DNA from: Botryllus schlosseri
Taxonomy: Eukaryota
NCBI GenBank assembly: GCA_051294905.1
Contig: CM119371.1
Span: 1,924,001 to 1,988,000, forward strand
Length of the DNA: 64,000 bases
Direction: 5' to 3'
In this document: positions 7,301 to 39,735 of the stretch, piece after piece
Layout of the letters: each line of letters begins with the position of its first letter
How positions within the stretch are numbered: position 1 is the first letter of the stretch
Notes under the pieces: model-generated
What the model saw: only the letters and a program-made list of their open reading frames with translations
Told to the model about the DNA's origin: nothing
Database searches by the model: none
Program-made: the position numbers and the translations under genes

Positions 7301-10300
7301 CTCCCTATTTTTGGGCAAAATTTTGCCCATTATACATGGAAAATTACGGTACCTGTATTTTACCTGCTTGTCAGTTCATTTTCTTTTCGTGGTCGTTAAT
7401 TTTAGTTTGTTAAGTAATTTATTTGAAAATTATCTCACCATCGTTTTGACATGTCTATTTCAATGAAGTGGCCCAATTTCCAGGTAATCCGCGTCATATA
7501 TTTTTTTCGTTCACTGGCGATCTCTTCATTCAAATCCCACCGTACGACCTTGTCAAGATCAAAACAAGTGGAAAGACATCCCTGCCACTTTGGGCATATC
7601 TGAAACACGATTTTTGGTCATCTCGGTGTGTTGAAATTGGTCACCGTAAATACTATTATTTCAAAAATGACCGAAATTTCAAGTTGAGTGACCAAGGCTT
7701 CCACTGGCTGGAATTGAGTCAAATTTGGTGTGCAACGTTTTTTTGGTAACCTGACGATTTGACAACTAAGCCGATAAAATTTGAAAAAAAAGAGTTTTTT
7801 TTAACACCCCTAGGGAGCACGCTCAAATGATCTCTTTTTGAGGATTTGTCCTCTTTTTAGAAAATTTTGGTAAAATGTATGTGAAAATTCAACTGAGAAA
7901 TTTGAAATACGTACTGAAGTAACGCGGTAGGTCTTTTGGGAGTTGAGCAAGAAAGGTGACTTTTTTTACTCAACCAACTACAAACTTGGAATAAATTCGA
8001 CAATTTTTTAAAATTTCTTTTTTTTTATTGCGAGTCTGAAATTTTTTGAAAGGTGTCCTCTTCTCAGATTCCCAAAATATGGTAACCCTAATCGACACTT
8101 AATTCTGACAAGGCGAAAAAGTGCTCAGTGAGTTCACAGTTTTATCGGAAAACGGACCACAAAGTAATTATGTGCAGAAGTGGATAATAAAATTATGACA
8201 CCAAACTATAATTTAAATATCTGTGGTCGCACTCTATTTGCGTTAATGACTCAACATCTCCTTGGCTTCCAGAGAAACCCGAATCAAGATGTAAAAATGA
8301 TGAAGCAACTTTCAACGTCTACGTTTACGGTTAAATCGCTTGTACTCTTCACAACGCTTACACAGGATTGTCAGATGCCGACTAAAACAAAGCAAGCATG
8401 GCAATGCGCCAACGTATATCGTCGGTCCCGCCATTCATCGTAATTTCGCCAATTCGTTTGTTTGCGAATAATAAAGGTATTGATGGAATAGAACCAGATG
8501 GCCGTGATATAACGTGATTACTATATAACGCATAAGCTTTTCAATCAAGTATTCAAGTGCAAAACAAGGGCGTGGATTTTAAGGAAATACTTTGGAATCA
8601 TTTGACTGGTCCGGCCCGCGAGTGCTCTGAAAGTTTGACTCTGACCCGCGACGCCAGTTGAGTTTGACACCCCCGCTTTAGATGAACAAATTACCAGGAA
8701 TTACGAACTCCGCAACTGCGATGGATATCTCGGGCATGGAATATAACTTAATTTATGTGGAGGGGACTCGAACTGTGCGGCAGAATTCAATGATAAACGT
8801 GTGATGGTGGGAGAAGAATGTCCAATATATCCAATGCAACTAATACTGGATGATAAGTACTACCTTCTTTCGCTGACAATCTTCTAACGTCTTCCTGAAT
8901 TCATCTGCTTTCTCAACGTAAAACATTGCATGGATATGAAGGGGAACGGAAATTGCTCTCCCGCGCTCCAAAATTAGTTTGTAATCGTCGACGGGTATCT
9001 GGCCATTCACGGCAATATCCAGGAGATCCAACTAAAATGCATGAATTTTTATTCAGACTTGAATATAGCCACGGAAGAGATCATTGGGTCCGAAGTCACA
9101 TACAATCATAGGTAAATTTAAATGCGTTTGGAAATACTTTATGAATCGAATCAGGAATCGTACTTGATACTTTTTCCAGCAAGTCTCAATCATCGACCAG
9201 TCCATCGACCAGATGTTTTCTTCTTCTTCTGTGCAATCGAGCACGATCTTGCTTATCTGAACACAATATTGGTTTCATTAGGTAGGATTACTTGATTGTT
9301 ATGATGTATTCCCATTTGAATAATTATCCATCCAGTTTCAGTACAATAGTACTTAGTATGAATTCTTCGATTCTCCATAATGCTTATACTACATCGGTTT
9401 TAGTCTCATCAAAGAACATGCTTTTTTTTAAATCTACTTATGAATATGATATGCATTGTACAGACGGATGATATAGAAGATGATGGTCAAAGTAGTCATC
9501 GTCGGTGGTCAAGCAGAAGTAATGCCTTCAATTTTTACTCAAGTAGAGGTATAAGAATCAATATGCAGGTAGTAAAAAAGTGAGTACTCAAGGCCTAGTT
9601 TTGACTGAAAAATGAAAACCACAAATAGAATTGAAAGTATTCTAAAATCATAACCACTTGAGTAAGTAGTTAAGTAGGAATAATCTACTTGAATTACTAC
9701 GACAAGTAGAAGTACTTTGTTACTGATCACATCTGGATATAGGTTGTAAGGAACTCTGGCTATGTAACGTGGTCATGGTCACTCATGTTTACCTGAACTT
9801 ACCTATATGCTTGGCACGGAGAAGCATACCTTATTTGAATTGTTAACTGCCAGCTTTCCAAAACTATTATTTGTAGCATGCATTGTTGATTTTCACCTCT
9901 GACAACGTCAATGCTTGAGCGTACAATTTCACTTATAAAATGGATGAAAACTTATCCGTGAAGTACTTTATATTTTCCAGAATCAAAATTTATGAAAACT
10001 TAACACGAACTACATTCTCCGTATCAGAATACAAAATACAACAAGCAATTAGTCTCGTAAAATAGGGTTAACCTATTCTGGAATCGGGTTAAAGTGGTAA
10101 ACTTTTTCCACTTCGTAGTTGGTTGACTATAAAAAAGGTCAACTTTCGCTCAGCTCACGAAATACCCGCCTGACAGTGAGTTCAGTGTTATTTTATGGTA
10201 TCTCGGTCGAATTTTGCCCTGTGTTTCAGCAAAATTCTGAAAAAAGAGGATAAAATCTCAAAAAGGAGGACATTTAGGCGTCCTCTGAGGACATTTCCAA

Positions 10301-13300
10301 TACCCCGAAAAAGGAGGAGAAGTCCTCATAAAAGAAGGCGTACGGTGACCCTATGTAAAAGATCTGCTCAAGTAGAATTTGAAGTAGTCAAAACATTGCC
10401 GCTTGAGTAAGTAGCGGAAGTAGGCAAAATTTATTTGAGTATTATGGAGAAGTAAAGTACTGGTTTGCTAACCACATCTATTAACGAGTCACTTACATAT
10501 TTCCAGAGTACATGGTTATTATGACAATTTCACTCATAATTTTAATGGAAAGTTACGAACTGCTTAATACTTTTCAGAATGCAAATTGTAACCAGTAAGT
10601 CGACTTGCCAAAAAATGCTCAAGTCGAAACGGAGAGACGACTACTTGCGTAAGTACTTGAACTATGTAAACTGTACTAACCCCATCCATGAAAAGACTAC
10701 TTTTCAGAGTACAAAACAGGTTATGGCAACTTACATTACTAGCCCAATTAGTTTCGATTTTAAGCTACTTCCATTTCTACTCGAACAGCTCCTTCACAAA
10801 TGCACATACTTTTCACGCATTAAATTTCTAAAAGCAGAAATTCAAAAGTAGCCACAACTGATAAACTGAAAAATATTTGCAAAACATCGACAAAAAATAC
10901 TTTTGAAAACTTTTTACTTGAGTACATTCCAGGCCTTACATTTTCAACTTTGAACAGGTGTTTTAAGAGCTAACTTTACTTGGAATTGTGTATAAATTCA
11001 AGCCATTACTTCTGCTTGGACTTGATTAGCGACGCTGACAACATTGACCACTTCTGCGTATACTCCAGACCGACTGGCAATATTATGAACGCAAGTTAAG
11101 TAGAAATTGACAGCACACGTTATAAATTGAAACTTGCATCTTACTGTACTGTGCATTCTCTTGTTACTAAAAATACCGAATTCGATATCATATGAGATTT
11201 TTGCATTATATGCCCTTATCAAAATAAGACCATATCCACTGTACTGAAATTGTAACATCGAGCCATGAAATTATGCCTTGAACCACAAAGCGAATTGACC
11301 ACCAGCAAACTACCCAACCATAATTATTATTAATTCAAGCGCGCTCAAGAAATCATTCGGTTACTTATTTTTGTTAGATATTCAGGTATTGATTACTGGA
11401 TTACCTACTGTAAGATGAAGTACATTTGAAAGTAGAAGCAAATAGAATGGTCGAATCGGTCAACCGTGATTCAAAGTTCAAATCTACAGCAAACACGAAA
11501 CTAAATAAATAGCATTTAAATAAAAATATATCTGTACCAGACCTTTTTTACTTTATACTCTGATAACTCCCGTACACCAGCCTGCTTGACATACAGTTCT
11601 TCAATCAATTTGACAAATTCTGCATTGAAGAGATTGATCAAAAATTCCACCGTCGCGAGGGAAACAACCATTTTGAATGATAGAGTGGATTCCTGCGAAA
11701 ATAAAGTGTTGCGAGTGAGGTCACAATCCACCAACAAGAAGCCCTAAGATATATGTGTGACTGAAGAATTTTATTTAAAAAATTCAAAAGAAATATCAGT
11801 GACTTGCAAACAGATAAAAAAAAGTCAACACGAGAAATTATTCCAACACCTCACACCGTGAGGGTTATAATACGATGTCTTCGAAAATTGTCAATTTGGC
11901 GCGCTGCCCGAAAAAATAACCGTCATACAGAGCACTCAAACACAAACTCATTGAGAAAGCGCAGCAGAATGTACAGCGTAGATAATACACATAGGAAATT
12001 AACACAATGAAAAAGCAATCAAGCAACCAAGCCAGTCAGATCGCTTTCGGCTTGCGTATCGTACGACCACTCGAGGTTAGCTTTACCATAGTGACTACTA
12101 CTGCATACTGCGGGCTAGGCGAAATAGTCGCGTTCTGAGAACATATCTTTGCAAACGAGTCACCTGAAATTGCGCACATGAACCACGTCACCGCTACAGG
12201 CATTATGTTGATCGAAACTTTTTAGAAAATATAGTCCGTCCACATCTATTTTGCGCCAAGCATGAAGAAATTTTGGACTCTGCACCTGAATATCTTTGTC
12301 TTGGTCTCTCTCTTCCCTTCTTCGTGAAAGTACATAATACTTCTACTTGATAATTTGTAAATAAGTAGGTAAATCTCAAAATATGACAGAGAACAAGTAC
12401 AAGTAGAGTGTCGGAAATAGGATTTACTTGTTTAAGTGCTACAAGTACGGGAGTACTTGAGTACTTCGGAAAAGTAGAAGTACTTGGTCATTGACAAATT
12501 CTTGGTTTGAATTAACAGAATATTTAAATTCGCTTCAACTCTTAATCACCGTGTCATTGTATTGGTTATTTCAATTGACCAAAGTTGAATAACGTTAGAT
12601 TCAAGGCTATTTGATTTGAGTAAACCAAGCAATTCGATTCCAAATCGCATCCCTTACAACGCTGTTTTATTATATCGAAGCAGAACTTTGCCCAGAATAT
12701 ACGTTGAATGCCCCCCCCCACTCCTACACACAATGATTCTGACAACAAAAATCTTCAAGTTCAGCAGGCCAAAAAATGACTTAGGAAATTATCACAAACT
12801 GTAAGCTTACTATTCCCTACAAAATTATCGCATCTTCAAAACGTTCATGATTACGTCATGAGCTACAGCTTGGCGATACTACACTGCGAGCTGATCGCTT
12901 CACGTGCCTAGCGTTGTCTACAGTTGCGCGCATAGTGAAGTCAGTGAAATGAGCGAACGTTCAATCCAATCAGAAGTATGGACTCGTTATCAAACTTGAT
13001 TCATCTTGATATCAAACCTTTATGTTGAAGTGCCCGTCAATAGTATCCTCAAAAAATATGTGACTTTCTCTTATCTTGATGACATCTTCTTCGTTCTTCA
13101 ATTCAACCCATTCTCCCCATTCTTCTCCTACAGTCATCTTGACAACCTGAATATTGTTCAGATGTGAAACTCGAGATCGTGCATTTTATCGATCATCCAC
13201 CGCCGTATCGCAGATACAGTGACGACCGAAGCATCACAGATCCTCATATGTTACACGTCATCGACACGGGTCACTGATTTTACCGGCGTTTTTGTCAGTG

Positions 13301-16300
13301 GCGCCATTTTGGTACATTTGCGACTCGATATCTCCGCAAACACTCGTTTATATGAGACATGAATTATATTGGCGACATCAGGAGAAAAAACTCTACGAAT
13401 CGAGACAAAGAAATTTTGGTCAATCTAGTCTAGTTGATCTTTAAAGCAAATCGTTAGCACCCGAAATCATATTCCTGTATTTACACGAATTCACGAGTGA
13501 ATTTCGTCTTTTGTTACGAGCGCGAAATTGGACAGTTTCCTGTTGTGAGCATGTAAATCTGAATTACATCATGGACATCATATTGACTCCTATATTACAA
13601 GGCAAACAAAACGCTGCATTCCAAAACGCTGTTATGTTCAGTAAAAACTTTTTGGATGCACACTTTGTTGATAAGGACTGGTACTTATCTGTTGCGCACC
13701 AACAATATCTACATGCACATTGCACACTCCAGAATTGTGACGATACTAGCAATGTTACTTGTTACTCACGCAGTGCATTTTTTAGCGGCACGCGGCGTTT
13801 GCTTGCGTAAATGGGACATAATTTGTCAAAATATTGATGCACAACTTGATCGCCGCCAGACTGACGGGTATCGATCACACCAATACCAAACTTCATTACA
13901 TTGCATTCATTACATTCATTCTCAATTCAGTAAAAAGCGGATTATTGTTCACGAGGTCAGCGCTCTTATTGTTGTCACTACCCTACATGATCCCCCATTT
14001 CACCAAATTCTATCACATAGCTCGATATCAATGACACAGTGCGGATAGTAAAACATCATATCAGTGGGTAAATACTGCACGGCTTAGGGATGAAAGCAGA
14101 GTGGAACTGTTAGAAAATATTCTTCAGAATTCACTGGCTATGTGACAAAATTGTTAGGTTGGTTGAAACACCGCTGTAAACCAAATTTGGCTTCAAGACA
14201 AACTAGTAGAAACAAGATTCTTGCTGTAAAAAGTTTTGAATTTATAATTAAAAAAAAATTCAAAGTTTTTCTTTCAACCCCATAAAATTGTTAGACAATC
14301 AGTAGTGATGATGCATACCAAATTTGGCTCGATTCCAACCGCTAGGAGCGAAGTCATTGCCGTAGTAAAATTTCCAATTCCATGATTTTATAGGAAATAA
14401 TTATAGCTTTCAATACAACATCCATTGTAGTACAATATTTAAACTCAAATACTTTCCGGCACTTTAAAGGGATTTAAATGGATTTAGAAGCAAAACCAAA
14501 TCTGTTTAACTCCCTTCAGTGTGCCGTTAACTCTTGAAAGAGGCAAGAAAAAAGTCTTCGAGGTTAATAAATATTCTACTACAATGGATTTTGTATTGAA
14601 AGCTATATTCAAGTTCTGTACCACGAATCAGCTATTTGAATAAATAATTAAAGAGCTAGCAATAACTTCGCTTCTAGTGGTTGGAGTTGAGCCACATTTG
14701 GTGTGTATCGTCTCTAGTGACAGCCCAACAATTTGACGTTGTTGACTGAAAAATTTTAAAATTTAATTTTTTGATGATCAATCCAAAATTTTTTACTACA
14801 AGAAAATCGCTTCTACTGATTGCAATTGACCCAAAGTTGGCGTGCAACGTTGTGGTTGGTTGCCAACCTAACAATTTTATAAGATAGCCGAAGAAATCTG
14901 AAGGTTTTTTGAACAGCCCTGATGCAGAAAATGAATGTATATTGCTTTCTATCACGACTATGGCGTCACAAATCACGTGCGATTGTCACGTCACAAGTAT
15001 CCGCATACCCACATAAAATCATAGTGACTTGTTAGTACAAAACTAAATCATAGAATCGATCTTACTTCCCAATCCAATTTTCCAGATAGTGATTCAATCC
15101 GACGATGCCCAAGAAGTGAACGTAGCGCTGTTGCTGGGACTTCGTTGTGCCGCAAATCCACTTCCTTCACCTGGAACGATTGAAATATTTTATGAAACGT
15201 TGAAGAGAACTAAGTGTGAAAATAAGTATGAAATAAAGTGACAAAAATTAAATCACTTGAGCCGTAATCTATTTAGGTTACTGTCGGTGGATCTTCGATA
15301 TAGCCTTAGATCATGCTATCGGTATTATCACATTCGCTGTCGGTTTGTACACCCGGAATATGAGTCATTTCCAAATATTCATAATTATAGAGCGCCCTAT
15401 AGTCGATATGTAGTCGATTATCGCAGATAGGCCTACTATAGTAGTCCTATTCGTGATTTAAATATGTGAAGCTCGTCACGAAACGTATCTTTTTGGGCAT
15501 GGCGACAAGTCACACTTCTCGAGGTGATTATCGCTTTCGCGCATTCGATATCGTTTCTGCATCCGATAAATTCATATAGATCAAAATCAATATCATTCCA
15601 TATTCCGACAGACGAACGATCAACTTATACACACGGCTCATCGTGTCGCTAGCGAGATTGCAATCAAATTGAACTAATTCCTTTCGGAATGGTATCGGAA
15701 TTGATGATGAATAGGGCGATTTTTTTAACTGAATAACGCGAGGATTTTGACCTGAAAAATCAAAATTTTGACATTTTTTTAACTTAAAAAACTTAATTTA
15801 GACAAAGTATTGCCCCTATGTATGTAAATTAGGTGTTTTCGCACATATTGTTATAATTGTACTACTTATCATCAATTTCGGTTGGAGCTGTCTTCCTTAC
15901 GAAGTAGTTTGAACTGAAAAAAATTTTGACTCAAAAACTGACAAATTTTTACAGGAAAAACTTCATTTTAACGAAATCCGGACCTATGAAGAATTCCTAG
16001 TTACATCACGCATTATGATAGAAATAATTGAAATGTGTTGTAGTACATCCAAAGATACTTTCCTACATTCCCGGGTATAAAGTGTCTGTCCATACCTAGT
16101 AGCTTGTCAAGAATGGAGAACGAACGTTCAACAGCAGGAGCTGGCAACACTGAAGTTGGGCGTACACTGCTGGTGAGAGAGCGTGTTGCTTCATTCTGAC
16201 AATGTTGTCTATATCGGCATTTTTATTTTGTGCGCTTCTTGATATAAGAACCAATGCCCACGCAGTCTTGCTTCCGTTAGGATATTGCGGTACGTTGAGC

Positions 16301-19300
16301 ATAACACCATGTCAACCTGTTTGTTTCATTTGACCGCTTATGATTCACAATGAGCAGACAATGGACCGTCGACAATGGTAGGTCTATAAAGTAAGCTACA
16401 AGATGTAAAATGATAAGTTCACCGATAGTGCAAACATCTACGATACAAACGAATCGCAAAAAAAATTGAATTTGTAAACAACTTTGACAATTTTTATACC
16501 TGACGCTACAATTTTAACAAAATATTATCCTGTCGCCCTAATAGTCATAAAATATGTTGACTAGTCAGTTGGTACAGTACTTCGTTACTGTCCATGTCAA
16601 CCTCTGATGTAGATACCGAATACCAGTACCAGCACCACAAGAGAAAACGAATTAGCACAGTCCATAATTACACAACCGAGAACTCACATCTGATACATCA
16701 GACACCATTGTCTTACAAAACTGATCGCTTGGATGAAATTTGATCGCGCGAGAAAACATAATCAGCATGGATCAACTGAAACCCTGACGTTCGACGAAGC
16801 CGTATATTGTTACTTTTAATGTTATCGCTGTCAATATTACTGAATTTGGCTGGGCAGAAGTGACGAATAACACTGGTCAATATAATGAAAAAAAAATTTT
16901 GCAGGACATCTTCGAGGTTACTGATTACGAATATCAAATTCGTTTTTTCCAGATTGACCTCAGTTTGGAAAATACTTATACCCCTGAAAAAGGCCCAAAT
17001 TACTGTATTTACCCTCTAAATATTTCACTTGGTAATAAGTAAATCACAGCGTTTTTACTTTTATACTGCCCTTAAATAGAGAATAGACAATGAAGAACGC
17101 TCATGTCGTCCTCAGTTATTCATTCAATATGAGCATGACCTGCTGTGAGATCTTTGTTTGTTAAACAAGCAGTTTGTCAAGCCTAAGAATTGTACTTTTG
17201 CACAACAGAACCTCTTGAGTAAGTAGTGCAAATAAGCAGAATTTGTTTCAGTACTTCGGAAAAGTAGGTGGTCAATATGACAATTCCACTTATAAAATGA
17301 TGAAGACTTATCCAAACATAAGGTTACCATACGTTCTTATTTTTGAGGTTTTTGAAAATGTCCTCCGAGGACGCTCTATTTTGGCTGATAAATGGACTGA
17401 GGCTATACAGTTTTTTATAGGTAGTTTAGCAGTTCTACGCATGCGTGTGCGGTCTGACGTCTTTTTGCATGTTTATTCAACTATAGAGCTCATTCGTCCC
17501 TCCATTCAAAATATATGACAACTTTCAAACAGCTATCAGAACGCAATACATGCCTCGTACTGCAAAAAATCAACTTGACTTGGATTGTGACTTGAATCGT
17601 GGCTTGACTTGACTTGACTCGAGTCATCTCAAAAAATCGAGTGACTTGACTTGAGTCTAGTCAAAATATGCAATGACTCGACATGACTAGTGACTCGAAG
17701 GTAGTGACTTGATCCCAACACTGATATGATTTGAAAAGGTAAAAGTAGTTTCATGATAGGCTTGTATAACTTTGATGGAATCTTCATGAGAAATCGCCAT
17801 CAACGTAACTGTTGAATCCATTTTTCACGATTGTTCCTACTTGCGACGCTACTAATCATTATGCGTTAGACGCCTCTTGCAATTTAAGAAGTAGCCACAG
17901 CCGATACTCCGCCGAATATTTGCGGTCCCTCCACCGAAACTATGTTCAGAATTACTTACTTGAGTACTTTTCCGACCTTTAGTTAGCTACTTCAACTTGA
18001 AGTAGTTTTACAACACTTGTAAGCAGTTGATTTTACTTGTGATTGCACATTAGGAGCGTTTAATCTTACAGGTTACCTGATAAAATTGTTACGTCACCTA
18101 ATTAAAGGCTGCACACCAAATTTGGGCCAATTTTAACCAGTAGCCGCATTGCTACAAGAGAAGAAAGTTTTATATTTATTTTGTAAAAACATATAAAACA
18201 ACGAAAATTTTCTGTTCACCCCATCATATTGCTAGATTTTGTACAGAAACGTTGGTCAGGAAATTTGGCTCATTTACAACCAGTGGAAGCGGAGTTATTG
18301 CAGTTGAAATATTTGGATTTGAATAAAATAGTATTTGCGGTGCCTAGGTTATCATTTTATTCATATGCAGCCATCCATCATGGGATTTTGAAAAGTAGAA
18401 AGTAGTTTTATGACACGTTTGTATCACTTTGATGTGTGAAATTGTCATAGGAAATCGAAATCGCCATGAACGTAGCTGTTGAATCTTCTTTTCAAGATTG
18501 TTGCTACTAATGACGCTACTAATAATTTCGCGTTAGTCGCAGACACTCTTCTTGCAATTTCGAAAAGTGGCCACATCCGATGAACTGCCAAATATTCGCT
18601 AATTCTACCTGTAATAGGGTACAAATTTACACCAACCCTTCAACTTTGACTCGATTAGCCTAGGCTGACTACTTGGACCACTTGTGCGTGCATTCGAGTC
18701 TCGGCTAAAAATATTGGAGACGCAAATTCAGTAGACATTGGGAATAAAAGTTTTAAGTTGAAACATGCGTCTTACTGCACTGCGCATTCTCTCGTCACTA
18801 AAATATCAAATTCAATATCTTATCCGCCTTTCGTATTAATTGGTCCTATTAACACGAAGGAATTAGTAAAACACCATATTCCGCACTACTTGCATTGCAA
18901 CAGATGAATTATTATAAATTCAAGCGCGCACAAAAATGCGTTCCGTTACTTATTTTTGTTGGATATTCAGATATTGATTGCTTGATTACCAACTGGCAGG
19001 TAGGGTACAGATGAAAGTAGAAGATAATCAAACAGTGGAATCGGTCAAGAATGAATCAACATTGACCTTTACAGCAAACTTAAAACTATGTAAATTGTAT
19101 AGAAAAAATAACTGTAACCAACCTTTTCTATTCTATACTCTGATATCTTCCGCAAACCAACCTCTTGGGCGACCAGTTCTTCAATCAATTTGACAAATGT
19201 TGCATCGAAAAGGTCGCCGACATATTTCAATGCTACCGCGGAAACCGTTTTGAAAGATAGACTGGAATCCTGTGAAAATAAAGTGTTGTCAACTACGTCA

Positions 19301-22300
19301 CAATCATCCAACAACAACCCTGAGATATACGTCCAAGCATGAGACATGAATCATGACTACTGCGGACAAGGCGATGGGATCGCGTTATCAAAACATATCT
19401 TGCGAAAAGAGCAGACTGAATTTGCCTGCATGAACCACGAATCCGTTACATGAATTATATTGACCTAGACATTCGTGGAAATATATTACTCCCTTCACAT
19501 CTATTTTGCTCGAAGCATAACAAGGACCCTCCCAAAAACAGCTCTTCATCTTGGTCCCTCTCTCTCTCTCTCTCTCTCTCCCTCGCTCGCTCGCTCTCTC
19601 TGTCTCTTATTGGAAGTACGTGATACTTTTCCATTGTATTGCAATCGTGTAGTTATATGAATTAAATAAATTTTAAGATAATTTATTTTGATATATTTGA
19701 ATTGAGAAAAATTAACTATTCGATTCCAACTCGCACTGGTAGGCACGATAATGATGGTGTCAAGTATAAATATTGCTTGTCTGTTGAAAATTGCGATAAA
19801 ATAACCGCAATCCATCGATTTTTAATGGATGTAATCGAAAATCCTGAATGTACTTGAAAATCGACGTACAGTGTCGACAATTTTTTTTTGAATAAATTTC
19901 AGTAGGCAAAAAACTCATTACTTATAATAATAATAATAATAATAAGTTGTTATCTTACTATTCTCAACAATAGCATCTCGTCTTCATGACGCTCATGCTT
20001 ACGCCATAAGCTACAGACTGGCTATACTAGACCGAAAAGCCATCGCTTCACGTGTCTAGTGTTGTTTATAGCTTGATGCATAGTAAAGTCAGTAAAATGA
20101 TCATAATTTTAGTACAATCATTAGTATGAACTCGTTATTGAAGTTAAATTATCTTGATATCCAACCTTGATGTCGAAATGCCCTTCCATCCCGCCACTTA
20201 TCTTGATGACATCTTCTTCATTCTTCAGTTCAACATTTCGTCCATCTACACTCAGCTTGACAACCTGAATATTGTTCACATGTGAAACTTGATATCGTGC
20301 ATTGTATCGCTATTCCAACAAATATCTTGACGTCATATCACACATATAGTGACGACCGCAGCATCACAGATCATCATCCGCTATACGTCATCGACACGAG
20401 CTACTGATTTTACTGGCGTGTATGCTGGTCGTAGCATTTTGCGACATTTGCGATCCGGAATCCCCAAAAACACTCGTCTATATGACGTAAGAAGTATATT
20501 GGCAGAATCAGGAGAAATATTATACCGATTTATACACCCGAAAGCGCCCGAAACCGTATTCCTGCATTTAAACGAATTCACGAGCGATTTTAGTATTTTC
20601 AATCGGAACGCGAAATTGGACAGTTTGCCATTGTGAGCATGTATTTCAAAATAATATGGAAACCATGGTGACTCCTATAATACAGAGCAAATAAAGAAAT
20701 GAAGCCCAGAACGTTGTTATAATCAGCAAACAATTTTGCGATGCGATGTCAGACCTCATTGTGGTGGCCTATTACTAATCAGATGTGCGTTTTCGTGATC
20801 AAGAGATCGTCAGTTGCGTACTACTTGATGTCGACATGCGCACTTCGGCATTGCCGCGATGCTAGCAATGCTACTTGCTACTTACGCACAGCGTTTTGCA
20901 GTGGCACGTGGCGTTTGCTTACCTAAAAGGGCCTTGGTTATTCAAAATATCGATGCAAGTATTCTGAATCAATTCTGTTTCTTGACCGGAGACGTGATGC
21001 GCTCCAATAAACTTGATTGCCAGAAAACTGTGTGGTATCGAACACATCAGTATCGAATTTCAAATAATTGGATAAATGAGGTCGTGACATGCGCTCAGGT
21101 GTCGTTTCGCTGCCTTTACGCTACGTAATCCACTATTTCACTAAAGTCGATTGCATGCATTGGTACTAATTAGACAGAGCGGATATTAAAATGTCGAATA
21201 AGCGGTTAAATACTGTACGACTTGTGAATGGGATGTATACAAATGTGTTCTCGCTCGACTATGACGTAAGCGATCATGAGCGATTGTAACGTCACAAGTC
21301 TCCGCAACCCACATAAAATTATAGCTGCAGTTAGTACACAACTAAATCCTAGAATCGATCTCACTTCCCAATCCAATTTTCCAGATAGCGATCCAATCCG
21401 ACGATGCCCGAGAAGTGAACGTAGCGCTGTTGCTGAGACGTTGCCACGCAAATCCACTTCCTTCAGCTGGAACGATTGAAATATTTTATGAAACGTTGAA
21501 GAGAACTTAGTTTGAAAATAAGTATGAAATAAAGTGACAAAAATAAAATCACCAAGCCGTAATCTATTTAGGTTACTGTCGGTGGATCTTCGATATAGCC
21601 TACATTACAAAGCGATATTCGTAGATCATGATATCGGTAATATCACATTCACTATGGGCTTGTACTCAGGGAATATGAGTGATTTTGAGATTTACATAAT
21701 TGTAGCGCGTCCAATAGTCGATAGGTAGGCCATTATCGCAGATACAATCGTAGACCTATCCGTGATTCAAATATGTATTCAAAAACGTATCTTTTTCGTG
21801 CTCGGCGACAAGTCACACTTCTCGGGGTGATTATCGTTTTCGCGCATTAGATATCGCTTCTGCATTCGATAAATTCACACCGATAAAAATCAAAATCATT
21901 CCATATTCCGACAGACGAACGATCAACTTTTATACAAACGGCTCATCGTGGCACTAGCGAGATTGCTGTCCGATTGAACTAATTGCTTTCGGAGTGGTCT
22001 CGAAATTAATGATGACTAGGGAGATTTTTTTACCTTATTAGCGCGAGATTTTGACCTGAAATTTCAAAATTTCGACGTTTTTTTAACTTAAAAAACTTGC
22101 GTACACTGCTGGTGACACAGCGTGTTGTTTCATTCTGACAATGTTGTCTACATCGCAATTTTATTCATGCGCTTCTTGATATAAGAACCAATACCCACGC
22201 AGTCTTGCTTCAGTTAGGATATTGCGGTACGTTGAGCATAACACCATTTCAATCTATTTGTTTCATTTGACCGCTTATGATTCACAATGAACAGTCAATG

Positions 22301-25300
22301 AGACGTCTACAATGTCAGGCCTAAAAAATGGGCTACAAGATGTAAAATGATAAGCTCACCGACAGCGCAAACATCTACGATACAAACGAAATGCAAAAAC
22401 TTTTTGACATTGCAAACAATTTTGACAATTTTTATACCTAACGCTACAATTTTAACAAAATATTGACCTTTTTTGCAATATCAAAAAATCGCCCTAGTCA
22501 TAAAATATGTTGAATGGTCTTGAATAGTTGGTACCACCTCTGATGTAGATACCGAATACCAGTACCAGCACGACAAGAGAAAACGAATTAGCACAGTCCG
22601 TTATTGCACACCCGAGAACTCACATCTGATACATCCGACACCATTGTCTTACAAAACTGATTGCTTGGATGAAATTTGATCGCGCGAGAAAACATAAGCA
22701 GCATGGATCAACTGAAACCCCGACGTTCGACGAAGCCGTGTATTGTTACTTTTAATGTTATCGCTGTCGATATTACTGCATTTGACTGGGCAGAAGTGAC
22801 GAATAACACTGGTCAATAAAATGAAAAAAAAATTTTTGCAGGACATCTAAGAGTCATTTCTGGGGTTTTCAAGGTTACTGATTACGAATATCAAATTCGT
22901 TTTTTCAGATTGACTTTAGTTTAGAAAATACTTATACCCCTGAAAAAAAAGCCCAAATTACTGTATTTACCCCCTAAATATTTCACTTGGTAATAAGTAA
23001 ATCGCAGCGTTTTTACTTTTGTACTGCCCATAAATAGAGAAAAGACTATGAAGAACGCTCATGTCGTCCTCAGTTATTCATTCAATATGAGCATGACCTG
23101 CTGTGAGATCTTTGTTTGTCAAAAAAAAACAGTTTGTCAAGCCTAAAAATTGTACTTTTGCACAACAGAACCACTTGAGTAAGTAGTGCAAGTAAGCAGA
23201 ATATGTTTGAGTACTTCGGAAAAGTAGGTGGTTAATATGACAATTCCACTTATAAAATGATGAAAACTTATCCTAACATAGGGTTGCCATACGTCTTCCT
23301 TTTCGAGGTTTTTGAAAATATCCTCCGAGGACGCCAAAATGTCCTCTTTTATTGGCAAATCGTCCTCCTTTATAACTTTTACAGCTAAGATAATGTATAG
23401 ATTTGAGTGAAAATGGGCATAAATGACGCTAAATAGGAAATTCGTGATTCGATCGAAAGTAACGATATTTTTTTTTAGTCAACCCACCAAATTAATTTTT
23501 AAATAGGCTGGTGCATTGCATCATACCGATTCGTTTCAATGTTTTTAGGTTTCGTATTCTATCCTCTCATTTGGCTGATAAATAGACTGAGGCTATACAG
23601 TTACTTATAGGTAGTTTAGCAGTTCTAAGCATGCGTGTGCACTGTGCAGTATGACGCCTTTTTGCATGTGTATTTAACTGTATAGCTTATTCGTCCCTGC
23701 AATCAAAATAAATGGCAACTTTCAAGCAGCTATCAGAACGCAATGACATAATATATGCCTCGTACTGCGTAAAATCAACTTGACTTGGATTATGACTTGA
23801 CTCGTGACTTGACTTGACTTGACTCGAGTCACCTCCAACGATCGAGTGACTTGACTTGACTCGAGTCACCTTCAAAAATCGATTCACTTGACTTGAGTCG
23901 AGTCAAAATATGCAATGACTCGAGATGACTCGTGACTCGAAGGTAGTGACTTGATCCCAACACTGATATGATTTTGAAAAGGTAAAATTAGTTTTATGAT
24001 ACGCTTGTATGACTTTGATGCGTGGAATTTTCATAGGAAATCGCCATCAACGTAACTGTTGAATCCATTTTTCACGATTGTTCCTACTTGCGACGCTACT
24101 AATCATTATGCGTTAGACGCCTCTTGCAATTTAAAACGTAGCCACAACCGATAATCCGCCGAATATTTGCGGTCCCTCCACCGAAACTATTTTCAGAATT
24201 ACTTACTTGAGTACTTTTCCGATCTTTGGTTTGCTACTTCCACTTGAAGTAGTTATACAAGACTTGTAAGCAGTTGATTGTACTTGTGATTGCACATTAG
24301 GGGCGTTCAATCTTACAGGTTACTTGATAAAATTGTTACGTTACCTAATTAAAGGCTGAACACCAAATGTGGTTCAATTTTAACCAGTAGCCGCATTGCT
24401 ACAAGAGAAGAAAGTTTTGTATTTATTATGTAAAAATATATAAAACAACGAAAATTTTCTGTTCACCCCATCATATTGCTAGGTTTTGTGCAAAAACGTT
24501 GGTCAGCAAATTTGGCTCATTTCCAACCAGTGGAAACGGAGTTATTGCAGTTGAAATATTTGGATTTGAATAAAATAGTATTTACGGTGGCTAGGTTATC
24601 ATTTAATTCATATGCAGCCATCCTTCATGGGATTTTGAAAAGTAGAAAGTAGTTTTATGACACGTTTGAATCACTTTGATTTATGAAATCGTCATAGGAA
24701 ATCGAAATCGCCATCAACGTAACTGTTGAATCTACTTTTCAAGATTGTTGCAACTAATGACGCTACTAATAATTTCGCGTTAGTCGCAGAGACTCTTCTT
24801 GCAATTTCGAAAAGTGACCACATCCGATGGACTGCCAAATATTCGCTAATTCTACCTGTAATAGGGTACAAATTTACACCAACCCTTCGACTTTGACTCG
24901 ATTAGCCTAGGCTGACTACTTGGACCACTTGTGCGTGCATTCGAGTCTCGGCTAAAAATATTTGAGACGCAAATTCAGTAGACATTGGGAATAAAAGTTT
25001 TAAGTTGAAACATGCGTCTTACTGCACTGCGCATTCTCTCTCGTCACTAAAATATCAAATTCAATATCTTATCCGCCTTTCGTATTAATTGGTCCTATTA
25101 ACTCGAAGGAATTAGTAAAACACCATATTCCGCACTACTTGCATTGCAACAGATGAATTATGATAAATTCAAGCGCGCACAAAAATGCGTTCCGTTACTT
25201 ATTTTTGTTGGATATTCAGATATTGATTGCTTGATTACCAACTGGCAGGTAGGGTACAGATGAAAGTAGAAGAAAATCAAACAGTGGAATCGGTCAAGAA

Positions 25301-28300
25301 TGAATCAACATTGACCTTTACAGCAAACTTAAAACTATATAAATTGTATAAGAAAAATAACTGTAACCAACCTTTTCTATTCTATACTCTGATATCTTCC
25401 GCAAACCAACCTCTTGGGCGACCAGTTTTTCAATCAATTTGACAAATGTTGCATCGAAAAGGTCGCCGACATATTTCAATGCTACCGCGGAAACCGTTTT
25501 GAAAGATAGACTGGAATCCTGTGAAAATAAAGTGTTGTCAACTACGTCACAATCATCCAACAACAACCCTAAGATATACGTCCAAGCATGAGACATGAAT
25601 CATGACTACTGCGGACAAGGCGATGGGATCACGTTATCAAAACATATCTTGCGAAAAGAGCAGACTGAATTTGCCTGCATGAACCACGAATCCGCTACAT
25701 GAATTATATTGACCTAGACATTCGTGGAAATATATTACTCCCTTCACATCTATTTTGCTCGAAGCATAACAAGGACCCTCCTCAAAAACAGCTCTTCATC
25801 TTGGTCCCTCTCTCTCTCTCTCCCTCGCTCGCTCGCTCTCTCTCTCTCTTATTGGAAGCACGTAATACTTTGTTTCATTGTATTGCAATCGTGTAGTTAT
25901 ATGAATTAAATAAATTTGAATATAATATAATTTTATATATTTGAATTGAGAAAAATTAATTATTTAATTCCAACCCGCACTCATCTCACTGGTAGGCACG
26001 ATAATGATGGTGCCAAGTACCGCTTACTGCCACAATAGCGTTTTACATAAATCAAAGCAAAAATGCTTCCAGAATATACCTTGAACGCCCCCGCCACCAC
26101 CACATAATATTTCGGTGAACAGTTCAGAATATTTAAAAAATATTGCTTGTCTGTTGAAAATTGTGATAAAATAACCGTAATCCTTCGATTTTTAATGGAT
26201 GTAATCGAAAATCCTGAATGTACTTGAAAATCAAAGTACAGTGCCGAATTTGTTTTCTAAATTCAGTGGGCAAAAATCTCGTTACTTAGAAAATCATCAC
26301 AAGCTGTAAGCTTACCATTCTTAACAAAAGCATATCGTCCTCATGACGCTCATAATGACGTCATAAGCTACAGACTGGCTATACTAGACCTCAAAGTCAT
26401 CGCTTCGTGTGCCAAGTGTTGTTTACAGCTTGATGCATAGTAAAGTCGCTAAAATGACTGCAATTTCAGTCCAATCATTAGTATGGACTCGTTATCGAAG
26501 GTGAATCAACTTGATATCCAACCTTGAAGTCAAGGTGACCTTCAATCCCGTCACCACTTATCTTGATGACATCTTTTTCGTTCTTCAATTCAACATCCCC
26601 TCCATCTACAGTCAGATTGACCACCTGAATATTGTTTACATATGAAACTTGAGATCGTGCATTGTATCGCTATTCCACCAAATATCTTGACGTCATATCA
26701 CACATATAGTGACGACCGCAGCATCATCGATCATCATCTGCTATACGTTATCGACACGGGTCACTGATTTTACTGTCGTTTATGCTGGTGGTGGCCTTTT
26801 GCGACAATTGCGACCCGATATCCCCGAAAACACTCATTTATATGAGATAAGAAGTATATTGGCGGAATCAGTTATTTTGGTCAATATAGTTGATCGTAAG
26901 CACCCGGAACCGTTTTCCTGCATTGACACGAATTCACGAACGATTTTTATCTTTTTAATCGGAGCGCAAAATTGGACAGTTTGCTATTGTGAGCATGTAC
27001 TTCAAAATACCATGAACATCACAGTGACTGCCATAATACAAGGGAAACAAAACATTGCAGTCCAAAACGCTGTTATAATTAGGGCTGGGCACAATGATTC
27101 GAGTGTTCGAATCTGAATCGAGTATTAATTTTAATGATTCAAGTCGAGAAGTAAAAGATGATTTTTTGGAGTACCGAAATCATGCGTTCGTCGACACTGA
27201 AAGTTACTTATTCATCAGAATTGTAGTTTTGACAGCATTTTCCACTTTGTAAGCCCTGAGACCATGATTGGTCGCATAACAGCATATGAAACATATTGGA
27301 CAAAGCTATGAACGTATAACATATTTCCAAAGTCAGGATCATCCCACAACAATACCACAAACGGAACCGCAATGAAATCGGTATGTTCGAAATATACCGA
27401 AGTATCTTTAACGTGATTCATAACAACAGTCATTATATTATTTGTGGTGGCAAAAAAGGTACATATTTGAACTTTGACATATTACATTCTGTTATGACGT
27501 CATAAGAAGTGATACTCGAATATTGGACTCGACTCAAAGCTTAGTACGTGATTCAGAATCGAATCACTCAAATACTCGATTCTGCCTAGCCCTATAGTTA
27601 TGATCCGGGAGTATTTTCGCTATGCGATGTCAAACTCATTGTGTTGGCCTGAAAATCAGATACGCACTTTGTTGATTAGGAGTAATATTCTGTTGCGCAT
27701 TAATTCATGTCGACATGCACACTCCTGAATTTTGACGATGCTAGCAATTTTACTTGTTACTCATGCAGGGCATTCTGCAGCGGAACACAGAGTTTGATTA
27801 CGTAAATGTAGCTAATTTGTCAAAATATCGATGGACAATTTGATCACCGCCAGACTGATTGATCACACCAATATCGAATTTTACTGCATTGCATTCATTT
27901 GATTCATTGCCAATTTACTAGAGAGCGGATTTTTGTTGACGCTACATAGTTAACTATTTCACTAAATTCGATTACATAGCTCGATATTAATGACACAGTG
28001 TGGATATTAAAACATCATATCAGTGGGTAAATACTGTACATCTTTGGGATGAATGCAGAGTAGGGTCGTTCAAAAATTTTTTTCTTCAGATTCCACTGGC
28101 TATGTGATAAAATTGTCGGGTTGGTTAAAACAACGCTATAAACCAAATTTGGCTCAAGTCCAACCAGTAGAAGCGAGATACTTGCTATAGAAAGTTTTGA
28201 CATTATCATTAAAAAACACACAAAAAAAGCCAAAATTTTTTTGTCAACCCCAAAAAATTGTTAGGCTATCAGTAGAGATGATGCATACCAAATTTGGCTC

Positions 28301-31300
28301 AATTCCAACCACTAGAAAGGAAGTTATTGCAGTAGAAAAATTTCCAATTCCATGATTTTATAAGAAATAATTATTGCTTTCAATTCAACATCCATTGTAG
28401 TGCAATATTTAAACTCAAATACTTCCCGGCACTCTAAAGGGATTTAAATGGATTTAGAAGCAACACCAAATCTATTTAACTCCCTTCAGTGTGCCGTTAA
28501 CTCTTGAAAGAGGCAAAAAAAAGTCTTCGAGTTTAATAAATATTCTACTACGATGGATTTTGTATTGAAAGCTATATTCAAGTTCTGTTTGAATAAATAA
28601 GTAAAGAGTTAGCTACCTTAAAACTGTTTTATTCGAATCCAAATTTTTCTACCACAATAACTTCGCTTCTAGTGGTTGTAATCGAGCCACATTTGGTGTG
28701 CATCGTCTCTACTGACAGCCCAACAATTTTATGTTGTTGACCGAAAAATTTTAAAATTTAATTTTTTTAATGATAAATCCAAAATTTTCTACTGCAAGAA
28801 AATCGCTTCTAGTGGGTGCAATTGACCCAAATATGGTGTGCAGCGTTGTTTTCGCCAACCTAACAATTTTACAACATATCCGAAGAAATCTGAAGGTTTT
28901 TTGAACAGCCCTAATGCAAAGAATGTATGTATAATGCTTCCTATCGCGACTATGGCGTCTCCAATCACGTGTGATTGTCACGTCACAAGTCTACGCATAC
29001 CCACAGTGGCTTGTTAGTACACAACGAAATCATATAATCGATCTCACTTCCCAATCCAATTTTCCAGATAGCGATTCAATCCGACGATGTCCGAGAAGTG
29101 AGCGTAGTGCTGTTGCTGAGAAATTATTGAGACGTAAATTCACTTTCTTCACCTGTAATGATGAATGAAATATGAATACAATGTCTTCCAATATCATGTC
29201 AAACCAACACAACTTTGCACAGACTTATTCAGGGCATATTATGGAAGCTGAGTATGTTCAACATCATTGCGATCCCCATAATAAAAGCAAACGACCCTAG
29301 GTTTAGAGCCACGGTCTTTTACTAATCCATTCAAACGGCTTCAATCAATTCTAGGAATACACCGTACTCTATAATTAAGATTATGATTTGATTTCAGTGA
29401 ATCATGGCTAATTTTAGTAACTATAGATTTCATTTTTGCGAGCGAGGCGGCAGCAGTAGGATTAACTGTAATTTGTAATTGAGCTGCATGTACTTACTTA
29501 ATTTTTTCATGTTATTTTAATTGTCATTGAAGCATTTCTATTCCGTGCATTGTAATTGTAATTTGATAAAAATTATACTAATTACAATTTCAATAGCATT
29601 GTTATTGAAACCTGACAATCACAACATGAAATAATTAGCCCATTAACATGGGTGTTCTATGCGTACCTTGTTAACTAATTCAGCCATACTAAACTGTTTC
29701 CCATAGGCCAACTTCAGCCCGAACAGAAAACTTGGTGAATTACAATATAGACTATTGAACAAAATGTTACTATTTCATAAATGGACGAAAAGAAAAGAAA
29801 CTCTTCTGTAACCTGTGCTGAACCATTTCCTACACCACGGTCAGTGTTTTTTTTTTTAAATCTCCTTCCAGTACTGAGTCTTGCTGCAGCAATTGCAAAA
29901 AGAAATTCAAGTTTTCAACCAAGACTTCATCACGCTTGATCACACATTTGTAGAGATGTTATCCCAGTCTTACCTCCTATCTTAGCTTAATTTACTGGGG
30001 CCAGAAACTTTCCGCATCCTAATGTTCATCAAATGCAGTCGAACAGTTTGGAGCAAGTGAAAATGTAACTGCGAACCAAAATTTTGTAATTGGTACTTAT
30101 GAGAAGCTTCTTTACTTTTGCATTTATTTTAATCTCACACACATTATCGGTATCATCCTTATTGCCTTACCAATTACATTTCATTCACCTTACTCAGCTC
30201 TGAGTATTAGTTCGAGTACATTTCATTGACTGTCTTGTATCCTATTCGCTATTAGTCGTTGCCAGTCGCTCGAACTGTTGATTGTTAGTAGTAGCTCATA
30301 AAAATTTTATTTTTTCATATTTTTCAGAGCTCATGATTAGGAATACTTTGAATAAGTTCAAGTTTGTTTTTTTTTCTAATTAAAGGGTATTCTACGTAAT
30401 ATGAATCATGAATGAAACATGAATAGCTTGAGATTGTTGCTAAATACGCTGCTACAGTTGTTAAAGAGCACCTCTCTACCGAATCAGTCAGACTTTTACA
30501 AGTAATTGTAATTATAATTGTACTGACTTACATGTTTAACAGTAATTGTTATTGTAGTCGGTGTTCTAAAGACTCGAGTTACGGTTTCCTGATGACTCGA
30601 CTTGACTCGAGTCATTTTTGCAAAATTCCGAAATCCCTCGACTCAACTCTAGTCAATCTGTGTATTGACTCGACTTGGACTCGATTTATTACCCATGACT
30701 CGAACCACGTCATATGACTCGAGACTCAGACGGCCAAGATCGTCATTTTATTGTAATTTCAAAGAATAGTTAAGTGACCACACAATTGTGATTTCGTCTA
30801 TGGGTACTGGTACTTGAAGATGCGACCAGAAACTGCTTCAAGTGAGGAAAATTAATATATTATGAATGCGAACCATTCGATATCAACAAACTGGGTTATA
30901 ATAAGTGGGTTACCAAGACGTTAACCGGAATTTGAGCCGTCAACATGATGACTTGGACTCGAGTCATAATGCCATGACTCGGACTCTGATCGCTGACTGG
31001 GACTCGGTGATGAATACAAAATGACTGGACTTGACTCAAGTCAAAACTATGAAAATGAGATTAACTCGTTACTCGGAGCCTCGGTGACTAGGTTAAAACC
31101 CTGATGGTGGTTGGAATTTGATATTTTTAGCATAGACTAATTGTAATCATATGTAATTAAAACATGCAATAAATTAATTGTAATTGAAATTGAATTGAAT
31201 TACTGCGGAGGTGGCCCTATATTTAATTTATTACAAAGTGCCAAGAAGAAATTTCAGTAGCATAAATCTGCTATTATTGTTTATGTTTATATGGAAAAGA

Positions 31301-37593: not shown

Positions 37594-38279
37594 CTGGAAG
37601 ATAACAATATTTTTTGTTCAATATATTTTATGTATAGAAATGATCGGGCAAAAGCTATTACCTCTGTTTGGTAATATTTTATATAACCTAGAACCCAGGT
37701 ATTCAAGGAAGATATAGAGATTTATATTGTGAATATCGCAGAATCCAGTTCGGTAAGCCCGGTACCCCAAATTACCAAGATATCAATTCATTATGGTGGA
37801 GCACAGCATCGTAAATGCCGATAATGCAAGTCTATTCGTTTGCACGAACTTAACGCGAAAGCTCCACTCTCGCACCCACTCTCGGTAATGTCCATTCTCG
37901 GTAATGGTTTTCTCGGTATTGGTATAGAACCCCGTGCCCCCCCCCCCCCCCCATGCCCTGGTCTGCCGAGATTCCCCACTACTTGTTTACGACGTCAAAT
38001 TTTAGTGACTGTTTGTTATTATCTGCGTGTGCGCAGCGAGCTTGCGCGTAAGTAGAAGCGAGAAGACATGCATTATCGGCATTTACGGTTCTATACTATT
38101 ACCGGGAACGGCCAATGCCAGGAATCTAACTTACTGAGAGGACGTTGTCGAGAAATTTATTTCTCAGAATCGATACCAAATGCGGCAAAGCCGTCATGCA
38201 CATGTACATTCACACGACCTGTATATTAGGATCTTCAAAGATGACTTATTTTTCTTAAATCGCACTGTTAGGTTACCTC

Positions 38280-39449: not shown

Positions 39450-39735
39450 GTGGCGATTCGCCTGGAAACCCGGGGTGGCGATTCGCCTTTTTATACCCCC
39501 CCACTCTGGGCCGCGATTCGCCATGTGTTCTTATGGGTGCGGTCGTGATTCGCCTTTTCGGGTATAGGCTGCGGCGGTGAGGTGCCTGAAAACCCGGGGT
39601 GGTGACTCGCCTTTTTTGCTATAGGCCGCGGTCGTGATTCGCCGTGAAAACTCGTGGTCGTGACTCGTCTTTTTTGCTATAGGTGGTGGCGGTGATTCGC
39701 CATGTGTTCTTATGGGTGCGGTCGTGATTCGCACT
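39450..39735. repeat. GC-rich subterminal array of the (G)TGA(T/C)TCGCC / GCGATTCGCC motif (mirror at ~59895-60180)
   Basis: Motif recurs about every 25-30 bp (one longer gap); ~39-bp direct repeat at ~39515 and ~39694. Confidence 0.85.

Follow-up and report, generated by a model that had tools for sequence, protein, structure and literature searches.

Gene structure

The stretch of DNA analysed here, hereafter the window, covers 64,000 nucleotides of Botryllus schlosseri (C1:1924001-1988000) in an assembly of 495.5 Mb and 219 contigs. Its minus strand carries an NLR-type gene, a NACHT gene, in which three unlike exons, designated W, X and Y, occur three times in tandem. This cassette part occupies positions 11543..29152 of the window. 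In the direction of transcription the gene model consists of a NACHT exon, a post-NACHT exon, cassettes A, B and C in the order W-X-Y, a penultimate exon (T1) and a last coding exon (T2), which together form an in-frame chain of about 1,039 codons from the NACHT exon to the stop.

Conserved edge motifs served to delimit the nine cassette exons. Cassette A comprises W at 29048-29152 (105 nt), X at 26523-26624 (102 nt) and Y at 25372-25518 (147 nt). Cassette B comprises W at 21365-21466 (102 nt), X at 20166-20264 (99 nt) and Y at 19123-19269 (147 nt, one of them unlike the corresponding base in the Y exon of A). In cassette C, W lies at 15066-15170 (105 nt), X at 13018-13146 (129 nt, with in-frame insertions relative to A and B) and Y at 11543-11692 (150 nt). 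All nine exons are on the minus strand, are bordered by ag and gt, have phase 0 at both ends and are free of stop codons. These exons had been listed with their order, lengths and the outer ends 11543 and 29152 in a prediction made from the letters of the window, and our borders match that original prediction to the base; the AG/GT borders, the lengths divisible by three and the lack of stops, which it had also described, are found in 9 of the 9 exons. A cassette encodes about 118 codons (W 35, X 33-43 and Y 49-50 residues), and the exons of the three cassettes sum to 1086 nt. With their introns, the genomic cassette units repeat with a period of approximately 6.2-7.6 kb.

The NACHT exon (36154..37593, minus strand, about 480 codons) ends in a phase-1 donor, GAAG/gtgagt, after position 36154, and its 5' end at 37593 is placed at a candidate acceptor only (ttccag/AA). 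A 501-codon open frame at 36122-37627 on the minus strand spans this exon, and residues 130-298 of the 501-residue translation match the NACHT family of Pfam (PF05729) with an E-value of 9.5e-15 and 55.3 bits, above the cut-off of 26.7. A GSGKT P-loop and the motif FFDGLD can be read in the translation. Pfam matches of the gene to NLRC4_HD2 and NOD2_WH are weak and fall under their cut-offs. The closest named relative in the NACHT search was a Styela clava protein of 919 residues (P0001, named 'protein NLRC5-like' by its source), which is 36% identical over 93% of the NACHT exon and 30% identical over the post-NACHT exon. By tblastn it aligns with the window at 37573-36179 in the NACHT exon (E 3.9e-82) and at 34014-33727 in the post-NACHT exon (E 3.4e-7). 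The other 53 matches, a few of them without a name, were vertebrate NLRC5 or NLRP3-like proteins at 20-23% identity. The NACHT match and the Styela relative bear out the earlier assignment of the gene to the NLR type.

The post-NACHT exon (33715..34022, minus strand, 308 nt) has an acceptor in phase 1 (caacag/TC), to which the phase-1 donor of the NACHT exon is matched at 34022, and a donor in phase 0 (CTT/gtgagt). Its 3' end encodes a stretch judged by eye to resemble a leucine-rich repeat (LRR), LKSLDLYDCKIND..., and the Pfam match of its open reading frame (ORF) to LRR_1 has an E-value of 0.12, under the cut-off. Downstream of the cassettes, T1 (9164..9256, minus strand, 93 nt, phase 0, ttcag/ATA..CAA/gtacga) begins with the LRR-like ISKIVLDC, and T2 (8840..9031, minus strand, 63 codons and a TAG stop) begins with the LRR-like LDLLDIAVNGQI, both again by eye. 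Amino-acid identity to the paralogues described below is 68-77% for T1 and 72-93% for T2. The cassettes had been predicted to lie between the post-NACHT exon and the terminal exons, and the donor after 33715 and the acceptor before 9256 are indeed where that placement puts them.

No N-terminal effector domain (CARD, PYD, death domain or similar) was detected by Pfam in 47 of the 52 window ORFs of at least 90 amino acids. The other five correspond to the NACHT exon, the post-NACHT exon, W of B, Y of B and Y of A; the first four were scanned separately as stop-to-stop ORFs, and Y of A was left out.

We also considered, and rejected, a longer Y exon that would begin at an upstream TTAG or TCAG, in a stretch with a conserved 'CDV..LFSQ' translation. 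Such an exon needs a phase-1 donor, which the upstream exons do not offer, and the stretch contains a stop in 2 of 14 copies; its conservation fits a branch point and polypyrimidine tract.

Constraint on the cassette exons

The exons were next compared among 14 cassettes from five paralogous genes. All 42 exons in this set, in which one tblastn-derived boundary was shifted by 3 nt, are open and have ag/gt borders. The flanks, translated in frame, soon meet stops; for example, 2 of the 14 copies do so at most four codons upstream of the Y acceptor. Of random substitutions in cassette codons, 4.84% create a stop, and the tree implies about 354 substitutions. Approximately 17 stops are expected in the cassette exons under neutrality and none is observed (P ~4e-8).

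Insertions and deletions follow the same division between exon and intron. All 7 distinct gap runs in the exon alignment of the 14 cassettes are multiples of three, and the 300-nt flanks contain 13-70 gap positions per pair, with the exceptions of the Y flanks of A and B, which are nearly identical (0-1), and of a W alignment that is short (4). The earlier statement that the introns accumulate indels and miniature inverted-repeat transposable elements (MITEs) agrees with the gap counts of most flanks and with foldback elements in the W-X introns of A and C. Nucleotide identity of W is 86-90% in the exon and 54-84% in the flanks. Genome-wide, 31 of 31 Y-type matches lack an internal stop, in a set collected as protein matches with E <=1e-3 and for that reason biased toward intact copies.

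The ratio of nonsynonymous to synonymous substitution rates (dN/dS) over the whole cassette is 0.32 for A-B, 0.54 for A-C and 0.78 for B-C. Because these values span 0.32-0.78, and because Y is near neutral between C and the other cassettes, we regard the constraint as real but uneven.

Cassette number and exchange among paralogues

The NACHT exon belongs to a large family, with at least 86 scored copies among 214 candidates genome-wide, many of them on contig C1. One or two internal stops are carried by 26 of the 86 scored copies. Six paralogous loci were examined beside the window gene. Four of them share the collinear layout of the window gene, with NACHT exon, post-NACHT exon, (W-X-Y)n, T1 and T2 on one strand. 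It was found complete with n=3 at C1:0.50 Mb and C1:2.80 Mb, and with n=2 at C1:2.25 Mb. In the fourth, at C1:3.61 Mb (locus L034), n=1: one W, one X and one Y come after the post-NACHT exon, the NACHT exon lying just beyond the stretch examined; T1 and T2 were not detected in that stretch. A paralogue on C4, designated D, has three cassettes with T1 and T2, and no NACHT exon was found within 20-22 kb upstream of it. Locus E at C1:1.536 Mb, with a lone cassette, likewise showed no NACHT exon within 20-22 kb upstream, and no NACHT, T1 or T2 exon within the 30 kb examined. None of the 16 cassettes seen lacks an exon, and all 16 keep the W-X-Y order.

In a maximum-likelihood tree built from the 14 cassettes, those in first position in four genes fall together (support 98/98). 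Nested inside this first-position group is the window's cassette B, beside the n=2 paralogue's second cassette (100/99), to which it is identical over 348 columns. Another group (100/99) joins the cassettes in last position in the window gene and in one paralogue, and the remaining cassettes form an unresolved comb. These groupings indicate that the multi-cassette state is older than the paralogues, and that the window gene's middle cassette, B, duplicates the first-position type and is younger. By segment, A and B are 80-96% identical, and C is about 70% identical to both.

The introns of neighbouring cassettes also share long stretches at 84-96% identity; B and A share 1.6 kb at 95.6%, and C and B share 1.2 kb at 87%. 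Stretches this similar are plausible substrates for out-of-register recombination. The original prediction had proposed that the region grows and shrinks by unequal crossing-over, and change by whole cassettes is supported here: paralogues carry one, two or three complete cassettes, B is a younger duplicate, and the introns contain long stretches of 84-96% identity.

A further tract points to exchange between genes. From just downstream of Y of B through X of A, introns included, window positions 18225..27458 match the n=2 paralogue, which lies about 330 kb away (L011-L012, C1:2271246-2280485), at 99.08% identity over 9,249 nt. The collinear flanks of this tract are 82-89% identical, and the two NACHT exons are 82% identical at the amino-acid level. 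Judged on these identities, the tract looks like the product of a recent inter-paralogue gene conversion or ectopic exchange, and mis-assembly appears less likely. Taken together, this large, clustered NACHT family has the cassette as its unit of gain, loss and exchange. Copy number would change where the similar introns of adjacent cassettes recombine out of register, and gene conversion would shuffle sequence between paralogues.

Two short ORFs on contigs of approximately 1 kb from other assemblies (P0055 and P0056) contain a Y-type exon at about 50% identity, with the conserved intron end 'CDV..FSQ' read through. They indicate that the cassette is not confined to the loci of this study and also occurs in divergent paralogues or in a related organism.

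Fold of the cassette

The original prediction named the cassette an LRR cassette, and this is supported for the start of exon W. A profile of 14 W exons searched against the PDB gave an NLRP1 LRR as its best match (E 0.011), with residues 1-19 aligned as mkeVDLRgNnisAtaLRSL against LKELDLSGNSLSHSAVKSL, and LRR proteins made up 8 of the 10 PDB matches listed. For X and Y the label found no support. The X profile had no LRR match in the PDB, its best matches being ribosomal protein S5 (E 0.03), DARPins and pectate lyase, and the Y profile had no LRR match either, with nothing better than an E-value of 4.4.

Predictions with AlphaFold2 (AF2) gave different structures for X and Y. The X exon of A, modelled alone with 13 paralogous X exons, is predicted as a four-strand antiparallel β-meander (strands at residues 3-7, 10-14, 19-23 and 26-30) with a predicted local distance difference test (pLDDT) score of 90.3. 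Y of B, modelled alone with 12 Y exons, gave one helix at residues 6-48 (pLDDT 77.8). A Foldseek search of the X model against the PDB returned a best E-value of 1.2 and nothing specific, and searches of a protein atlas with X and Y gave no usable match, the best (0.76) being to a bacterial DUF4097 cluster. When W, X and Y were submitted as three chains to a complex prediction, in which the alignments were unused, the score was 0.02, and this result weighs neither way.

These data have to be set against an alternative view, in which W-X-Y as a whole forms a regular, though divergent, LRR solenoid with about four rungs over its 118 residues, and duplication has lengthened a classical NACHT-LRR arc. 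The surroundings of the cassette speak for it, as the flanking exons are LRR-like (LKSLDLYDCKIND in the post-NACHT exon, ISKIVLDC in T1 and LDLLDIAVNGQI in T2) and W itself opens with an NLR-type LRR motif. By eye, W, X, T1 and T2 each start at the exon border with a strand-like pattern of hydrophobic-x-x-hydrophobic-x-hydrophobic, which parallels the border fixed within the β-strand of vertebrate NLRs (PMC6642158). The cassette length of 118 residues is also close to twice 57, the length of the paired LRR unit in the same article. However, the profiles of X and Y find no LRR in the PDB, Pfam LRR_6 is reached by only 1 of the 14 W exons (E 0.24), and no LRR protein is among the Foldseek matches listed for X. 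A cassette hidden Markov model (HMM), run against 56 stored proteins, scored only two read-through ORFs, and the scores of 52 NLRC5/NLRP3-like proteins and of the Styela relative were negative. The three exons are moreover unrelated to one another (hhalign probability below 1% for all three pairs), and X and Y modelled alone are confident antiparallel hairpins and a 43-residue helix. We therefore consider a regular solenoid rather unlikely. On the strength of the profiles and models, the cassette is probably a composite, with a predicted LRR-type rung at the start of W, a small β-meander in X and a long helical segment in Y; a simple series of LRRs is improbable.

Transcript data and alternative explanations

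Reads of four runs (X1, X3, X17 and X19) were placed on the window at 90% likeness or better, the raw RNA runs being sampled at about 6% (X17) and about 13% (X19). RNA reads placed numbered 325 for X17, of which 325 matched the window over part of their length, and 1,362 for X19, of which 1,354 did so, and they are concentrated in intronic dispersed repeats. Two X17 reads lie over Y of C at 11575, with one base difference. The contig-type runs X1 and X3 have similarly low depth over unique introns and over exons and high depth on repeats. This genomic-DNA-like behaviour makes them silent on splicing, save for one contig that joins W to X. In that X3 contig (depth 18.6) the 3' edge of a W exon (21363) is followed, after 29 other letters and without an intron, by an X exon (13106). 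Read by hand, the 29 letters and two shared bases are the start of an X-type exon, identical to X of B at about 21 of 31 bases. The contig thus has a join at the predicted W-X borders, in a relative or allele, and could be a processed (intron-less) copy or cDNA. The joints 16137 to 22103 and 16434 to 22373, which leave out about 5.9 kb, were considered as signs of a haplotype that lacks cassette B, and were rejected, as they lie in high-copy repeats and carry extra letters.

As a whole, the evidence is best explained by selectively maintained exons of one NACHT gene, in which the cassette is the unit of change and has a composite fold; we assign this reading a probability of about 0.72. Several observations weigh against it. 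Constraint is weak in places: Y alone has a dN/dS near 0.9 and is approximately neutral for C compared with the other cassettes, and the B-C value over the whole cassette is as high as 0.78. Nucleotide identity separates exon from flank poorly, as in X of B compared with A, with 82% for the exon and 81-84% for its flanks. One of the three-cassette paralogues has a TAA in its NACHT exon (C1:540758-542236) with intact cassettes, and some family members are therefore decaying. Neither the start codon nor the 5' exon or exons of the window gene were found. Bins that contain exons have an RNA depth of 0-0.2 in the X17 and X19 samples, which is no transcript evidence for the gene, and none of the 15 joints listed (there are 81 further) has the ends expected for a minus-strand intron. 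Neither of two protein collections contains a spliced cassette protein, annotated or transcript-derived. Finally, fold predictions can mislead when, as here, fragments are modelled in isolation and the alignments are shallow and limited to close paralogues. In a related search, 1.84 billion representatives were compared with a profile made from 12 Y exons, and the 2 matches were both short unspliced read-through ORFs.

The original prediction had noted that the cassette exons can be skipped without a frameshift, and by arithmetic from phase 0 this is true of each of them. One may go further and suppose that cassettes are combined in RNA, with whole cassettes or single phase-0 exons skipped or chosen to give several receptor isoforms per gene. 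All ten internal exons after the post-NACHT exon have phase 0-0, so that every skip product is in frame, and there are precedents in the skipping of exon 5 in human NLRP3 (PMC6642158) and in the alternatively spliced LRR exons of brown-algal ROCO genes (PMC11378527). The same phases are explained equally well by an origin through cassette duplication, however, and the sampled reads contain no evidence of isoforms. Combination in RNA is in our judgement distinctly unlikely. Still more doubtful is the fuller proposal that builds on it, namely that W-X-Y is an undescribed composite sensor repeat (an LRR rung, a β-meander 'island' and a helix) confined to the NLR expansion of one tunicate lineage, with its 86 or more NACHT copies, present one to three times per gene, swapped by conversion and also skipped or chosen in RNA.

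Another possibility is that the window gene is a silent or decaying member of the family whose exons are intact only through recent duplication or conversion from active paralogues. This would account for the lack of expression in the sampled RNA reads, and it draws further on the very recent copying of the 9.2-kb tract to or from a paralogue, on the internal stops in 26 of the 86 scored NACHT copies and on the B-C dN/dS of 0.78. It accounts poorly for cassette C, which lies outside the converted tract, is only about 70% identical to A and B, and is nevertheless intact with in-frame indels only. The NACHT exon is also open over 501 codons, every splice site is canonical, and recency alone cannot explain 42 stop-free exons across the family. 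We regard a silent or decaying gene as improbable. That the triplication is an assembly artefact of mis-joined haplotypes or paralogues is scarcely credible: although this is a repetitive family with one tract 99% identical to another locus, the cassettes differ substantially among themselves (C about 70% identical to the others, A and B 80-96%), three cassettes occur independently in two other paralogues, and contigs from runs of other individuals cover the region piecewise.

Comparison with other systems

Maintained exons of a NACHT gene, arranged in cassettes, have counterparts in vertebrate NLRs, where in-phase modular LRR exons are known and exon 5 of human NLRP3 can be skipped (Hoss et al. 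2019, PMC6642158). In NLRP3 each of the LRR exons has a length of 171 bp and codes for two canonical ribonuclease inhibitor (RI)-type LRRs (28 + 29 amino acids), with the exon border fixed within the β-strand (PMC6642158). As in vertebrate NLRs, the C-terminal region of the window gene is a NACHT receptor region built from tandem in-phase exons with fixed borders, which can be duplicated, lost or skipped with the frame preserved. One shared phase, a trait of the RI-type arrangement, is found in 9 of 9 cassette exons and in T1, all 0-0. The second trait, whole and mutually similar repeats of 28-29 residues in each exon, is absent from the cassette, in which the exons encode 35, 33-43 and 49-50 residues and are unrelated. 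Unlike in NLRP3, the unit consists of three unlike exons (35 + 34 + 49 amino acids), and an LRR is recognisable only in the first 20 or so residues. Exon skipping is demonstrated for NLRP3; in the window gene the phases would permit it.

Brown-algal ROCO genes encode each LRR in one 72-bp phase-2 exon, and these exons are shuffled and alternatively spliced (PMC11378527). Like the brown-algal ROCO and NB-ARC-TPR genes of that article, the genes studied here form a large family of candidate receptors in which tandem repeat exons of the same phase are shuffled between genes, with a proposed diversity of binding. They differ from the ROCO genes in having a three-exon, 354-nt, phase-0 cassette, and the organism, the nucleotide-binding domain and the repeat type are also different. 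The repeats of fungal NACHT-WD (HNWD) genes are reported to vary in number, and unequal crossing-over and gene conversion to homogenise or reshuffle them (PMC1805685, PMC13449251). Here too NACHT genes are clustered and have C-terminal repeats that vary in number and are exchanged among paralogues; in contrast to the fungal WD40, ANK and TPR repeats, which lie within single exons, the repeats of the window gene are of another sequence type and are split by introns of kilobase length. The window gene has no demonstrated link to allorecognition.

Among tunicates, ascidian NLRs have been described as NACHT-LRR or NACHT-only proteins without an N-terminal effector domain (PMC11508797). Consistent with this, no death-fold domain or CARD was found in either the window gene or Styela P0001. 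Unlike the window gene, P0001 has no X- or Y-like segment, and W matches one LRR rung of P0001 weakly (E 0.017, probability 2.7%). Among the papers listed in full-text literature searches, none describes a composite cassette of several exons in the NLRs of tunicates. That repeat exons of NLRs can be modular and in phase is known; the unit of three unlike, largely unrecognised exons is new, as is the lineage.

Among invertebrates, the tunicates are most closely related to vertebrates, and to our knowledge their NLR repertoires are poorly described. The present gene belongs to a large, clustered NACHT family with a tail cassette that goes unrecognised by Pfam, by PDB sequence profiles and in a library of 1.8 billion proteins. 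The cassettes may form a variable C-terminal sensing or autoinhibitory region of the receptor. If the genes are expressed, the sensor of an innate receptor would vary through the number of cassettes, through conversion between paralogues and possibly through in-frame skipping. That this amounts to a receptor-diversification system, as had been suggested for the locus, is a step that we infer. A composite repeat with skipping in RNA would, if true, represent an exon-cassette diversification system for cytosolic receptors in an invertebrate chordate; if the cassette is an ordinary divergent LRR, it would be another case of the exon modularity that vertebrate NLRs already show.

Intronic repeats and neighbouring elements

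The W-X intron of cassette A contains a foldback, MITE-like inverted repeat at 28084..28895, with arms of 133 and 112 nt that are 78-86% complementary. A related foldback element occupies 14115..14910 in the W-X intron of C, and shares the direct-repeat families D3, D8 and D19 with 28082-28521. High-copy, transcribed dispersed repeats lie in the introns at 15830-16496, 21833-22499, 23167-24500 and 26502-27835. Over the intron repeats the DNA-like runs reach depths of hundreds to thousands, and nearly all placed RNA reads fall there. Microsatellites of the (TC/GA)n type are found at 19548-19611 and 25798-25855, in equivalent places in the X-Y introns of B and A.

Upstream of the NACHT exon, tandem arrays at 39541-39701 and 40379-40811, with periods of 58 and 198 nt, lie in a GC-richer stretch, with a G+C fraction of 0.42-0.45, in the area where the 5' exon would be expected. 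At the end of the window, a 306-codon ORF on the plus strand (62473-63390) matches Pfam RVT_1 with an E-value of 6.2e-32, and adjacent ORFs within 61479-63791 suggest a retrotransposon.

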